From NCBI GenBank assembly GCA_937965925.1, contig CALCME010000033.1:1-24931 (forward strand): a stretch of 24,931 nt of DNA. The letters run 5' to 3'. The DNA is from Candidatus Absconditabacterales bacterium. Its GTDB lineage: Bacteria; Patescibacteriota; Gracilibacteria; Absconditabacterales; Absconditicoccaceae. The notes under the pieces are model-generated. The model had not been told where the DNA came from. It did not search any database and was given only the letters and a program-made list of their open reading frames with translations. The first letter of the stretch is position 1. Each line of letters begins with the position of its first letter. The position numbers and the translations under genes were made by a program. Shown piece by piece: positions 18,665 to 24,931 of the stretch.

Positions 18665-19708
18665 ATGAATACACGTAAAACGTTACTAAGTAACATGAAC
18701 AGTTCTATTTTTTCCTTTTTCATTTGAGTTCTTATCATGCTATGACTTTTGGCATGATGCTCAAAACAGCTTTCTGCACCATCATGATTTTTTTGAATGG
18801 TGTATGATAAGCTCCCAAAACACTCTCTGGTTAGCATTGTTCAGAAAATTGAATCAACACCTTCTTTTTCAGCAAAACAACAGTATGAATCGACTCGAGC
18901 TATACTTCCAGAATTACTCGACTGATATGTTAATCAAGATTCAGAACTAACCTGAGACTTACATATTGAGGTACATTCTGAAGGAAATCACTATGATTCA
19001 TACTCATATAGTATAGATTTCGATATTCTAGCTAATTGATTCCTTTCAAAAAAGAAGAAACTCAACATACACTGAAATATACTCATTATACTCAAAGACA
19101 ATTCATTATATACCTATATAGAATCTCTTGAATATACACCTGTAGGAAATGAATTACAGTCAGTCCATCTTCGATGACTCTTACTCAAAAGATATAAAGA
19201 GACTCGAATACGTCGAGATATCCCTACTCAAATAGGTTATTTCGTCCCTACTCGACGAAAAGATCGTATCAATTCAAATATGATCTCATCGCATATGGTA
19301 TCTAATATGAGTAATGGTTGGTATGCTGCAACAACTGGAGAAACACTATGGTTGGAGGATACAATTACTGAACTAACTGAACATATCGATATAACACTAG
19401 TTCCAGAAAAACTCGCGATTTCACTTATACACGATAGTGAGGAGAATAAACAGAAGAAAAAATCATATATCACTGATATACACACAACAGGAGATATACA
19501 TATATCATCAACTTGAACAACTCAATTTTCATCATCACGTTCAGGATATACATCATCGTTCGATTGAAATATTCTGATCCCATCAGGTATAAAATCAACA
19601 CTTTCATTTGACTCAACATATACGCCAGTAAGGGTAAGTAAACACATACCCCTTCCAGTAAGTTTCATCGAATGATCAACAATATTAGTAGATCAAATTT
19701 CTAATTAA
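18665..19708 (+). CDS. Predicted lipoprotein of unknown function (347 aa; alternative start 18695)
   Basis: Basic N-terminus, hydrophobic core and lipobox LAG-C (TTG GCA TGA TGC, 18749-18760); open to TAA 19706-19708, includes track ORF 19280..19516. Confidence 0.8.
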
Positions 19709-21258
19709 GTGAGTGGTTCTAGCTCATATCATCAGGAGACATCCTTTACAGTTCGTCATTCATTCGTAATCTGTTCTCTAAGAGAATCAGCTTTTTCATA
19801 CTCTTTTGCTTTCTTTGCAGATTGACGTTGCTCAGCTAGTTCCTTAATAGAATCTGGAGCATCAACATTTTTTTGCGTAAGGACTTCTTTCACGAGATCT
19901 ATGAGTCATATCTTTAAGATAACTTGATCAAGAAGCAAAGCATCCATCGCATCTTCATGTGACGATCATGCGTGAGAATGAAGAAGCGTAAGAACCGAAA
20001 CCGTATCAAGATCATCAGCAAGAGATGCTTCTGCCTTTTTATACAAAGGATACGGGACATAACTATCCAGAAGCTTAATATCTTCTAACGAAACTTGTGA
20101 ACTAATTTTTTTTGCTAAATTTGATCTCGTTTTTTTTGCGCTTTCCATTGCTTCCCAAGAAAAATCAAGGAAGTTTCTATAATGTCAGGTCAGATAGAAA
20201 TATCTTAGGTCAAGAGCATCATATCACTTAGCGATAATACCTGGAATACTTAAATCATCTCATTTAGACTTACTCACCTTTCATCCATCAATATTAAGAA
20301 ATTGATTATGCATTCGTCGATTTACCCATTTTGAACATCATAAACTACATTCTGCTTGAGCAATCTCATTGGTATGATGAACCGTAACATGATCAATTCA
20401 TCACGTATGTATATCAATATGTTTTCATAGCTCTGCATTTGCCATTGCACTACATTCTATATGTCGTCAAGGAAATCATCTTAAACGTTCTTCTTCATCG
20501 GTTACTTCAGATCTTTTTACAAAAACAATATCTCCTTGGTAATCACTTTTCAATCTAAAATCGTTCTCATTAAACGTGTCGTCAACGACCATTGCTCAAC
20601 TCCTGTCTCCATCATACACCCATTCCATAGATCTTTGCTCATCTTTTGGTGATATTTTCCAGAGTGCAAAATCCGAGAGATTTCTTTTCTTACTCGAATC
20701 GATTTTTGCACCATCTCATCTATGATCAGAATTCATTCACTCAAAATCTAGCTGTGCAAGTTTTCCATAGTCTTGTACTTTGGAGGTATCCATATATACC
20801 CCATCTCATTCTATAACGTATGTGAATCACTTTTCAGTAAGTGCTTGTACCATATCGATCTGTTCTTGAATATATTCTGTAGCTCTTGTATACACATCAG
20901 GATGAGAAATCATCAACTCAGACATATACTTCTTGAAGTTGTTCTCATACATTCTCGCAACTTCCCAAACCGTCTTATTCTCTCTTCTCGCTCACTTTTC
21001 CATTTTGTCTTCTCATTGATCTCCATCATCTGTCAAGTGTCCAACATCAGTAATATTCATAACATGATTCACTGTATATCATCATACAGACCTAAGGGTT
21101 GATTTTAAGATATCTACAAACATATATGCCCTCATATTTCAGATATGAGGATCTCCGTAGACAGTAGGTCCACAACTATATAGCTTTATTTCATCTTTAG
21201 AAAGAGGAACAAAGAGTTCTTTACGACGAGTGAGGGTATTATACAAATGAATGTCCAT
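19705..21258 (-). CDS. cysS: Cysteine--tRNA ligase (517 aa)
   Basis: [70 protein letters not shown]. Confidence 0.97.
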
Positions 21259-21396: not shown

Positions 21397-21912
21397 CTAA
21401 TCACTACAAGATTCTTGAATCTTGGTAGCATAACTTCTCGCGTATCACTCATAGACCTGTCTACTTTTTGTAAACTGCTCTGATGAAAATGATTCTAACG
21501 ATTCCAATCTCTTTTTTGCCTGTTCTAATGTCTTTACGTTCACACATTTTCAAGCATCCATTGTAGAAATCAGTTCTTTAAAATATCTTTCAAGCTCGTG
21601 TTGTTTCCTTACCTCTTCACCATTTTTCCCTGTTATGTTTCAGAGAAAGACTTCTGCTTTCTGAAGAAGAACCTCTACTCCTGCGAAGATAGATGTTTTT
21701 TCTGCAGGATGCGTCTTGAGATAGTTAAAAGCAATAACCAAAAGAATACATCATATGATAAATTCTACCATGTTCATGCGAAATCTTTTCTTCTTTTCTG
21801 CAAGACTTCATCTCATTTCTAGAAGAGTGTCATCTACATTATCTGTTTCAATATGTACTTCATTTACATTATTTTCGTTCTTTCATTCAAGAGTAGTTGC
21901 TTCCGTAGACAT
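21397..21912 (-). CDS. Hypothetical single-pass membrane protein (171 aa; possible GTG start at 21918)
   Basis: Acidic N-terminus, TM MVEFIIGCILLVIAFNYL, helical C-terminal part with two Cys; open to TAG 21397-21399. Confidence 0.8.
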
Positions 21913-21960
21913 AGACACTAATAATATAGTAAATAAACTTTAAATTTGAATGTATAGTAA

Positions 21961-22010
21961 ATTAATATTGAATTTAGACATAATTTACTACGTAGTCTAT
22001 CGCCGTAAAT
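21961..22010 (-). repeat. Copy B of the 50-bp dispersed element (core 21983-22001)
   Basis: Reverse complement ATTTACGGCGATAGACTACGTAGTAAATTATGTCTAAATTCAATATTAAT aligns without gaps to 3316-3365. Confidence 0.85.
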
Positions 22011-22133: not shown

Positions 22134-23288
22134 CTACCTAGTTACTCTTTTATAGTTCCCATACCAGTCATCAAAAGATCCATCTTCTATCTTCGTTTGC
22201 ATACGACGCATAAGACGATAATAGAAATCTAAATTTTGAAGCGTTGCAAGACGTTTACCAAGAAGTTCTTTTGCTCTCATCAAATGTCTTAGATATGCTT
22301 TGGAGTACGTACGTAGCTCTGGAATGATGGAATCTGGAGAGATTGGGGAGAAATCAAACTCATATCTCTTCCCAACAATACGGACACACTCATAATGATT
22401 CTCATCTACTTCAAATATCAGTGATCAATGACGAGCACTACGAGTCGGATAGACACAATCAAACAAATCGATTCATGCTGCAACACACTGCACTAGTTCT
22501 CTTGGAGTCCCGACTCATAACAGATGACGAGGCTTATGAGCTTCTAGAATGGTAGTCTGTGTTCTCACTTCCATAAGAGTTGTCTCTTCAGAGTTTGTAT
22601 TACTTGCGATTCATCAAATAGAATATCCAGGAAAATCAAATTCTTGAATAGACTCTGCATGAGCTTTACGTATGTCTGGATAATGCATTCATTGTGGAAT
22701 TCATCGAAGCATAGGCATAGATCCGTCTTTGGTATAGTCAGGATGTAAGTTCTCCCGTTCCTGTACTGCTCTCCTCATCCATCTATCAGTTCTACGCACC
22801 GAATCCCATGTCTCATTCACCGAAGGCTGTGCTGGTAAGACATGGTCTAGGATAAGCGCTACATCTGATCATAAGGTCGTTTGTATTCTCATACTTTCTT
22901 CAGGAGAAAGAAAGTACTTCTTTCCAGATCTTTCCTCACGAAACATCACCCCTTCTTCAGTTATCTTACGTAATGCTCAAAGACTAAACACTTGATATCC
23001 TCATGAATCAGTCAAGATAGGTTTATTCCATGAATTAAATGCATGTAATCATCATGCAGCATCTATAACCTTAGTTCAAGGTCTTACCCATAAATGATAT
23101 GTGTTTCACAGAATTATCTCAGCTCACAACCTAAGCATATCTTCCATAGAGAGCGCCTTGATAGCTCCCTGAGTTCCTATTGGCATAAAATTTGGCGTCT
23201 GCACAACTCCACGAGACATGGTAACCTCGCCGCGACGAGCCATCGTTTTTGTTGATTTTGCTTTGATGGTAAAAATTCAGGAAGACAT
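22134..23288 (-). CDS. tgt: tRNA-guanine transglycosylase, atypical (384 aa)
   Basis: [72 protein letters not shown]. Confidence 0.95.
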
Positions 23289-23446: not shown

Positions 23447-24931
23447 CTAGTTCACAATAACCATCGCATGATGATCAATATCCAATCCATCTTCATTATG
23501 TAACATAACTCAAACGTTTACCCATGGGGCAGGTCAGAGATTTGGAGCATACGTAAAGGATCAACCACTGTCAGTGGACGTATAAAATACGTCCCTACTT
23601 CCTGCTGTATCCTCAAAACATATCGCTACCTCACTATTTGGTTGACTACTCGTTCATGCAATAACGGTTGGACTCAGATCTGTGATGACGAAGTTTTTGC
23701 TCGTATCATGTAATGGAGCATCGTCTCGGCAATATTCTATTTTACATTCTGATGAACATCAGTCATGAGAAGTGAGATTACCATCATCGCACTCTTCATC
23801 TACGTCTATAGTTCAATTTCAACAAGGAGCACAGCTCGAAGCTGGAGTCAAGAGATTTCATCCTATGATACTAAACTCTGGTGATACGGCTCATCAAGGA
23901 CAAGAATGAGTTACTCATGAACCTATTCAATAGCAATCTAAATCTTGATATCATGAAAGATGTCCTGGTGCCCAGAGGATTTCCAGGGGATCTATAGTAC
24001 ACAGAGCATTTGACATCCAAAGAATTTCTATCGGATACTTCCCTGGTTCTGGAAAGGTCACTCGGTGATATTGCTTTCGATTTCATCACGGTGATTCGGT
24101 CAACCGACTATACTCAAATAATTGATTATCTCATATAGTCAGACGTAAACCATCATTCACATGAGATCAAATAGTTCGTTCGACTGGACTTCAAGGAGTT
24201 CATGGAACATTCAGAAATCATGTAAGACGCATCGCATTCAACTGTGTAGTTTGCGTTGGTCGAGAAGCTCATCAAGGAAAATTCCCCGGTGATGTACAGC
24301 TAGGAGAAAGGTAAGAATAATCAAGCGCAGGTTGAATATTTCACGTACTACTATACATAATATCGTTGAGCGTCATATCATCTAATCTTTCTATATAATG
24401 AGGAAAATTTTCTTCGTTGTATGCTATTGGTCAAGTTGAAAGAGAGACTGCTTCTTCACAAAGTCCTATAATAACAGGCTCATCTACGAATTCTCAGCTT
24501 TTGTCTCAGGTATCAAGGATATTCTCGCACAATGTTGGGGATCATCAATCACACACAAATCCGTCATTAATAGTACAATCATTCGCACACCCATCATCAT
24601 TTTCGACATCTCAATCATCGCATTCTTCACTTCACTCCACTCTTCAATTTCCACAATAAACGGTCTCGACTTCTCCACAATATTCTGTTGCCCAGGGTGA
24701 TCATGATCCATCACCACTCGCTCTTATATAACATTGAAAATCATATGCGTCACTAGTTGGGATGGTATATAATACAGGGTTATTTGTTGTATATCGTGAA
24801 AAAGCATCTCGTGTAGTGGATGATATTGGTTTCGCTCTCATCGCATATAACTCAGCATAGGTTCCATCACACGACATCTCAACCTGATCTCACATTTCCA
24901 GTTGAGTTCAAGAAACATCTACTCATCACAA
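23447..24931 (-). CDS. C-terminal part of a large extracellular protein with two myxococcal-type Cys-rich repeats (DUF4215-like), a PA14-like domain and a terminal Ig-like domain (partial, starts beyond the window)
   Basis: Frame open from 24931 to TAG 23447-23449. CGNGRVEGSEECDDGDVENDDGCANDC (24655 down) and CGNGTIDVDEECDDGNLTSHDGCSSEC (23824 down); between them RLTGFLNVP...HVNDGLRLTIG...GKYPIEILW. Confidence 0.88.

Follow-up and report, generated by a model that had tools for sequence, protein, structure and literature searches.

A putatively acquired second Tgt lacking the four zinc ligands in an Absconditabacterales genome

The four zinc ligands of Tgt have been described as "absolutely conserved" throughout the three domains of life (PMC3074131), and mutation of these ligands is reported to abolish the function of the E. 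coli enzyme, as summarised in PMC9894224 with reference to Chong et al. 1995. No published report of a natural zinc-free Tgt was found in the literature, the nearest case being DpdA of phage 9g, in which two of the four zinc ligands are missing (PMC5699537). The residues that govern the choice of base have been addressed by mutagenesis, in which Cys145 favours preQ1 and Val161 favours queuine (PMC3074131); the Y106F/C158V/V233G mutant of the Z. mobilis TGT has a structure with queuine bound (PDB 4hqv), and GG[LS][AS]G has been published as the signature of queuine use (PMC11570991).

The window analysed in the present study, that is, the whole stretch of 24,931 nucleotides from an Absconditabacterales bacterium, carries a gene for a Tgt (P0001, hereafter referred to as the window Tgt) that departs from this description at all four ligand positions. 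The best overall explanation, and one considered likely, is that the gene encodes a working zinc-independent bacterial Tgt, which was acquired horizontally and adds the salvage of a bulky base. For this protein, we infer the absence of the metal, the enzymatic activity and the base specificity. The reading frame, the former zinc site, the base pocket and the genomic setting of the gene are discussed below, together with the other explanations that the same observations may bear.

Reading frame, genetic code and family membership

The Tgt gene is uninterrupted solely with code 25, in which TGA encodes glycine, and then yields a protein of 384 aa. The gene, its two unusual codons and the two catalytic aspartates are located as follows.

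22134..23288, minus strand: gene of the zinc-ligand-free Tgt (P0001), 384 codons followed by a TAG stop, with 16 TGA codons read as Gly and matches to PF01702 and TIGR00430
22755..22757, minus strand: CGG codon 178, at a column occupied by F/W/Y in the homologues
22704..22706, minus strand: CGA codon 195, at a column occupied by F (44/45) in the clade and by W in P0003 and P0005
23007..23009, minus strand: D94 (equivalent to Z. mobilis D102) of the TDSGG motif, invariant in alignment A1
22458..22460, minus strand: D277 (equivalent to the nucleophile D280) of the FDCV motif, invariant in alignment A1

The 16 in-frame TGA codons account for more than half of the glycine codons of the gene (16/30), and all of them fall at conserved Gly columns such as those in TDSGG, GYSIGG and LLGVGTP. 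In a family search of the whole genome, PF01702 was matched along 349 of its positions in a single frame, which contains 15 TGA codons, and the longest ORF in the Tgt region under table 11 is at most 96 aa. A pseudogene or an intron-split gene was also considered and was rejected, as all the fragments lie in one frame and are joined by TGA codons at Gly positions. A tRNA-Gly with the anticodon UCA, encoded at C36:4345-4418 as the first member of an eight-tRNA cluster, accounts for the reading of TGA as glycine in this genome. In the available proteins of the homologues P0003 and P0004, W stands at conserved Gly columns, from which it follows that TGA was translated there as Trp by the gene caller (code 4).

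Recoding of CGA and CGG to Trp is known for the Absconditabacteria lineage. The occurrence of codons 178 and 195 at aromatic columns fits this recoding, and both codons are probably read as Trp and not as Arg in the real protein. The codons at the former ligand positions are TCC, ATT, CTA and CAA, all four of which are left untouched by the CGA/CGG recoding. Taken together, the 16 TGA-Gly and the two CGR-Trp codons imply that the Tgt gene would have had a long stay in code-25 hosts.

The predicted protein scores 390.2 bits on TIGR00430, the NCBI Tgt equivalog model (cut-off 306.75), and 391.6 bits on PF01702 (cut-off 26.3), and is by these model scores a bona fide bacterial-type Tgt. An AlphaFold model, for which the alignment of 53 sequences (A1) served as the input, has a mean pLDDT of 92.1, rising to 98 over the C-terminal 90 residues, with TM values of 0.89-0.93, and presents the (beta/alpha)8 barrel with the inserted tRNA-binding loops and the C-terminal subdomain. 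It superposes on the Z. mobilis TGT with Z 51 and an rmsd of 1.6 Å over 367 residues, model residues 4-383 matching 14-383, a stretch that takes in the entire former zinc subdomain; AlphaFold works without metals and would be expected to return the family fold either way, so the model says nothing on the absence of zinc.

In addition to the two catalytic aspartates, the guanine-binding residues D148, Q199 and G226 (equivalent to Asp156, Gln203 and Gly230) are invariant in A1, as are the tRNA-binding K44, R283 and R286 and the dimer-interface Y332, H335 and E341 across the 53 aligned sequences. The view of the initial annotation that the YSKAYLRHL flank and the catalytic Asp residues (D94 of TDSGG, D148 of LD and D277 of FDC) are intact thus holds for every one of them. 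The tRNAs that are the usual substrates of Tgt, tRNA-Tyr(GTA), tRNA-Asn(GTT) and tRNA-Asp(GTC), are all present in the genome.

The former zinc site and its loss in Patescibacteria

The ligand positions of the window Tgt are occupied by the following residues, as placed by the alignments and by the composition of the clade to which the protein belongs.

22314..22331, minus strand: S320-I-I322-P-E-L325, replacing C-x-C-x-x-C
22236..22238, minus strand: Q351, replacing the fourth zinc ligand His; the corresponding clade column holds N in 49, Q in 40 and H in 30 members

In the alignment to the E. coli Tgt (PDB 10fb), the three Cys correspond to S320, I322 and L325 and the His corresponds to Q351, without any insertion or deletion, and the same mapping is obtained from the alignment to the genome's own canonical Tgt. 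It had been proposed from the DNA that all four zinc ligands of the TGT are lost, the Cys cluster having given way to SIIPEL at 22314-22331 and the His to Gln at 22236-22238. The residue-by-residue alignment bears out the loss at all four positions (S320, I322, L325 and Q351), and both sets of coordinates are exact.

The loss is a property of a large group of proteins. The Cys triad is absent in 120/120 of the best homologues from a collection of 5.8 billion proteins, and the former ligand columns of these clade members hold Ser in 120/120, one of F/I/L/V, Leu in 120/120 and one of N/Q/H, respectively. In a tree of 206 rows, the zinc-free sequences form a monophyletic clade of 47 rows with a support of 100, within which the window gene is nested together with P0003, P0004 and P0005, and the sister of the clade (support 99) carries CCCH. 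The four substitutions are thus fixed across a whole clade, which argues that they did not arise by chance. Pairwise dN/dS values range from 0.09 to 0.24, with dS saturated, among the clade members outside the subclade of the window Tgt for which DNA was available; given the saturation, the true ratios are probably lower. As judged from these sequence comparisons, the values support purifying selection on the zinc-free clade.

Among 300 Patescibacteria genomes, this type of Tgt occurs in at least 11 of the 15 genomes of GTDB family f27 and in one of f96, and it is the sole Tgt match in those genomes (genome G187 is counted in the phylum-wide tallies of Tgt type and QueA only). No conserved neighbourhood of the zinc-free clade was found, the neighbours including an oxidoreductase, a tRNA synthetase/NUDIX protein, a Mur ligase, ribosomal protein S9 and an MscS channel. 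A search of genome contigs with P0001 returned two canonical Bacteroidota Tgts only, at 40-41% identity. Some members of the clade, namely P0122 (530 aa), P0123 (440 aa) and the G097 and G217 loci, have two separated match stretches or are 60-150 aa longer, which suggests an insertion near residue 185, possibly an intein or an extra domain.

Binding of zinc by alternative residues was considered for the C-terminal subdomain. No alternative ligand set was found there, the only conserved Cys/His column in the 120 clade members being H335, which is the dimer-interface His and is present in the zinc-containing Tgts as well; binding of the metal by other residues is therefore judged unlikely from the sequences. 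The initial annotation had read the concerted loss as a stable zinc-free subdomain and not as decay, and had named a phylogeny of the TGTs lacking CxCxxC and a structure prediction among the means of checking it, with an inactive enzyme under relaxed selection or zinc held by alternative residues as the contrary outcomes. The mapped phylogeny places the window gene in one supported clade whose loss is shared by the 120 best homologues, the structure is predicted with high confidence and can be laid over the zinc subdomain of the Z. mobilis TGT, dN/dS stands at 0.09-0.24 in the zinc-free clade instead of indicating relaxed selection, and the C-terminal subdomain offers no other conserved Cys/His set. 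The proposal of stability accordingly agrees with the conserved residues at the former ligand positions, the clade with a support of 100, the purifying selection and the confident fold, and also with the finding that in f27 the zinc-free type is the genome's only Tgt. Compensation for the loss of the ligands is assumed in this clade.

Tgt is usually treated as an obligate zinc metalloprotein, whereas zinc losses are many and independent and concern about a quarter of the sampled Patescibacteria Tgts. The Cys triad is absent, in many different forms, in 16 of 60 Tgt loci drawn at regular intervals from the Patescibacteria hit list, and in about 35 of the 150 nearest representatives of 50%-identity clusters in a library of 1.8 billion proteins. 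On the 206-row tree, 22 changes of zinc state are needed, and well-supported branches make at least 11 of them unavoidable. Zinc-free Tgts with the canonical GGL[AS]VGE pocket were observed in six genomes that also bear QueA (G132, G153, G173, G297, G322 and G328), a combination that favours a functional role of the zinc-free Tgt in the usual pathway. The existence of a large clade under selection suggests that the Tgt fold can be held without the metal, and the zinc-free sequences provide natural starting points for the study of zinc-knot replacement.

A further Tgt lineage without the zinc cysteines was noted in GTDB family f42 (loci L111, L112, L114, L119, L121, L132 and L133). The pocket wall of these proteins reads GGEL followed by Q/R-E/D, and QueA is present in two of the 15 genomes of the family.

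The base pocket and the proposed substrate

Two segments of the base pocket differ from those of the canonical enzyme.

22839..22847, minus strand: D148-H-V150, in which D156 is retained, E157 is replaced by His and C158 by Val
22593..22616, minus strand: GGIASNTN, residues 225-232, where the pocket wall is rebuilt and GGL[AS]VGE is replaced, with the equivalent of Glu235 lost

The parent clade has LDEC and GGVANGGE, the latter one residue longer than GGL[AS]VGE, and the subclade of the window Tgt (P0001, P0003, P0004 and P0005) has LDHV and GGIASNTN, with Val at the position of Cys158, Ser at that of Val233 and no equivalent of Glu235. The features of a preQ1 pocket, Cys158 and GGL[AS]VGE with Glu235, are thus absent from the window Tgt. 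When its wall is set against the published queuine signature GG[LS][AS]G, GGIAS has Ser for Gly, Ile for Leu/Ser and one extra residue, and Val150 is present. Without an equivalent of Glu235, base exchange might also be weak or absent. In the zinc-containing sister clade, a different variant was observed at the Asp156-Cys158 motif, where LDDFPG stands for LDEC (loci L045, L047, L050, L052, L053, L056, L058 and L060), and the genomes that host this variant mostly have QueA.

The gene content of the host genomes was examined in parallel. QueA occurs in one of the 15 f27 genomes, but in 35 of the 41 genomes related to that of the window, all four same-genus genomes included; QueC occurs in none of five f27 genomes, including one that is assembled as a single contig. 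In the window genome, which is 66% complete, QueA, QueC and YhhQ were not found. The f27 genomes, having the zinc-free protein as their only Tgt and mostly lacking QueA, suggest the direct salvage of a larger base. The pocket with Val at position 158 and a small residue at 233, in combination with this gene content, leads to the hypothesis that the acquired window Tgt inserts a ready-made bulkier base. Annotation pipelines name such proteins "Tgt" and miss both the loss of the zinc site and the altered base pocket, and reconstructions of the queuosine pathway in these symbionts may consequently be wrong.

Second copy, insertion and relation to known systems

The genome carries a second Tgt on contig C65, which has the canonical CCCH, LDVCSP and GGLSVGE and is 36% identical to P0001. 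This copy groups with the same-genus Tgts on the tree and is on that ground the vertically inherited one. At E <= 1e-100, the 400 sampled genomes of the class, 64 of them from the family of the window organism, yielded no P0001-like gene, and none was found in four genomes of the same genus; the 40 nearest relatives have one Tgt-type gene each, with CCCH in nearly all the loci examined. The features that flank the window Tgt are as follows.

23447..24931, minus strand: C-terminal part of a DUF4215-repeat protein, inserted together with the Tgt relative to the same-genus genomes
21397..21918, minus strand: 173-aa gene with no function assigned, first gene of a conserved syntenic block that borders the insertion
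19705-21258: cysS, member of the conserved syntenic block beside the 173-aa gene

In three same-genus genomes, cysS and the 173-aa gene directly adjoin homologues of the genes of contig C8, whereas in the window genome (G000) the zinc-free Tgt and the large DUF4215-repeat protein stand between the cysS/173-aa block and the C8 genes. Since the two blocks are contiguous in the relatives, the Tgt is part of a lineage-specific insertion, and the DUF4215 protein is likewise absent from the insertion site in the same-genus genomes. The N-terminal part of the DUF4215 protein lies at the end of contig C8 (C8:9307-11559, plus strand), the two parts comprising at least 751 and 494 aa. A repeat of 79% identity, common to both ends of the protein at the C8/C33 break, probably caused the assembly to break there, and a very large DUF4215 protein appears to span it. 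AT-rich inverted repeats with 20-nt arms are found at 21927-21990, between the stop codon of the Tgt and the next gene, and may mark the edge of the insertion.

The genome is a bin of 139 contigs, and the assignment of both Tgts to one organism depends on this binning. The binning checks are consistent with one organism, as code 25 is shared and the GC content of contig C33, 0.335, lies within about 1.3 SD of the mean (0.354±0.015); the single-copy genes cysS, xseA and holA of contig C33, which holds the window, have no second copy in the bin. The residual possibility that contig C33 is a co-binned contaminant was found to be unsupported, there being no duplicate single-copy genes and the GC being near the mean. 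Judged from tree and synteny, the zinc-free Tgt is best classed as a horizontally acquired second copy beside a vertical zinc Tgt, and the genome thereby offers the two side by side for comparison.

A pair of this kind could have been assembled for reasons other than base salvage. The zinc-free copy may be a non-catalytic or regulatory partner that heterodimerises with the C65 Tgt, as QTRT2 does with QTRT1, and tunes tRNA binding or the choice of base. Two Tgts as divergent as 36% identity in one genome, the retention of the interface residues Y332, H335, E341 and K44 in both copies, and the dimeric state of bacterial Tgt, in which a single subunit is active (PMC5699537), are in keeping with such a role. 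It is nevertheless thought unlikely, as all the catalytic and guanine-binding residues are kept, unlike in QTRT2, the donor-type clade has the protein as its only Tgt, so that it must work there as a homodimer, and the zinc/zinc-free pair occurs in no other genome among the 400 of the class.

The coexistence of zinc-containing and zinc-free copies also brings to mind the zinc-sparing backup paralogues, such as the C-minus ribosomal proteins, FolE2 and QueD2, which do the same job and are expressed at low zinc; QueD2 is known in this same pathway (PMC9894224). A backup function is regarded as quite improbable for the window Tgt, for no Fur/Zur-family regulator (PF01475) was found in the 66% complete genome and the region upstream of the Tgt holds no convincing operator-like palindrome, only weak AT-rich inverted repeats. 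Moreover, the base pocket differs from that of the canonical copy, so that the two would not be interchangeable, and among the 400 same-class genomes the pairing is unique to the window genome.

A recently transferred gene that is drifting to loss, inactive but still unbroken, would be expected to show the patchy occurrence seen here, with no such gene found in the four same-genus or the 64 same-family genomes, a location in a variable island, and the loss of Cys158 and of the Glu235 equivalent. Drift is considered very unlikely on account of the intact frame of 384 codons and of the three code-25 lineages (P0001, with P0003 and P0004 at 79% and 75% identity), which are full-length and keep every catalytic residue; the conversion of 16 Gly codons to the host-specific TGA implies long residence, and the DHV and GGIASNTN motifs are shared with P0005 at 67% identity. 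Action on another target or base (another RNA position, rRNA or DNA as the target, or a 7-deazaguanine distinct from queuine as the base), to which the rebuilt wall that matches neither preQ1 nor the published queuine signature and the TGT-family paralogues with new targets, DpdA (PMC5699537) and, according to a preprint, Cap10 (bioRxiv 10.1101/2025.04.06.647259), lend some plausibility, is held to be highly improbable in view of the score above the Tgt equivalog cut-off, the lack of a match to any PADLOC model (E <= 0.01), the Tgt-like tRNA-binding residues and whole-length fold, and the neighbours (DUF4215 protein, unassigned gene and cysS), which form no conserved neighbourhood pointing elsewhere.

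The favoured explanation, a working zinc-independent Tgt that adds bulky-base salvage, may be set out as a series of steps. The Cys3His zinc knot would have been swapped residue for residue, with no insertions or deletions, for Ser, F/I/L/V, Leu and Asn/Gln/His, and the replacing residues are predicted to pack as a small hydrophobic plug that keeps the same fold. As the catalytic machinery and the tRNA-binding and dimer-interface residues are unchanged, the enzyme should carry out the ordinary covalent exchange of the base G34 in tRNAs with GUN anticodons. The donor-type clade would be found mostly in a Patescibacteria family that has this protein as its only Tgt, mostly without QueA. From it, an organism of the SR1/Absconditabacterales type using code 25 would have acquired the gene horizontally, within the inserted island, and the gene would since have been kept in code-25 hosts beside the vertical zinc Tgt. 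With Val at Cys158, Ser at Val233 and no Glu235, preQ1 would be a poor fit, and the gene most likely adds the direct salvage of a bulkier ready-made 7-deazaguanine base, for example queuine.

A broader proposal, that the gene is a mobile salvage module for a host-made base and that zinc has been dispensed with at least 11 times in the Patescibacteria Tgts, is tentative and leans towards the doubtful. If true, an SR1 epibiont would place queuine or some other bulky 7-deazaguanine straight into its tRNAs, alongside its own preQ1/QueA route, the rule of the absolutely conserved ligands would be overturned and natural templates for a metal-free TGT fold would be at hand.

Among the known systems, the window Tgt stands closest to the E. 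coli and Z. mobilis Tgts (EC 2.4.2.29), to which it is 37-41% identical over the full length. It shares with both the TIM barrel and the C-terminal subdomain, the catalytic Asp pair, the guanine-binding Asp/Gln/Gly, the tRNA-binding Arg/Lys and the dimer-interface Tyr/His/Glu; unlike them, it has S, I, L and Q for the four zinc ligands, Val for Cys158 and the wall GGIASNTN for GGL[AS]VGE. With the queuine-using TGTs, eukaryotic QTRT1 and bacterial Tgts like that of Chlamydia trachomatis, it has in common Val at the 158 position and a small residue at 233, and its source clade is hosted by genomes that carry tgt and mostly lack queA and queC. However, QTRT1 and the Chlamydia-type enzymes retain both the zinc site and Glu235, with GG[LS][AS]G as the wall (PMC3074131, PMC11570991), whereas the window Tgt has GGIAS-NTN and its parent clade GGVANGGE, and the same-genus genomes of the window organism have QueA.

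QTRT2 (QTRTD1), the non-catalytic subunit of the eukaryotic TGT, likewise accompanies a canonical TGT as a divergent protein of the same fold, but it has kept the zinc site and lost the catalytic aspartates, the reverse of what is seen in the window Tgt. DpdA of phage 9g, a DNA 7-deazaguanine transglycosylase, is archaeal-TGT-like, distant and active on DNA, whereas the window protein is of the bacterial type. FolE2, QueD2 and the C-minus ribosomal proteins resemble the arrangement in the window genome in that a zinc-free version stands beside a zinc-containing one; unlike these, the window Tgt is without evident Zur regulation, is foreign rather than a local duplicate and differs in its pocket. 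The window Tgt is thus a new structural variant of a well-known enzyme and not a new kind of system.
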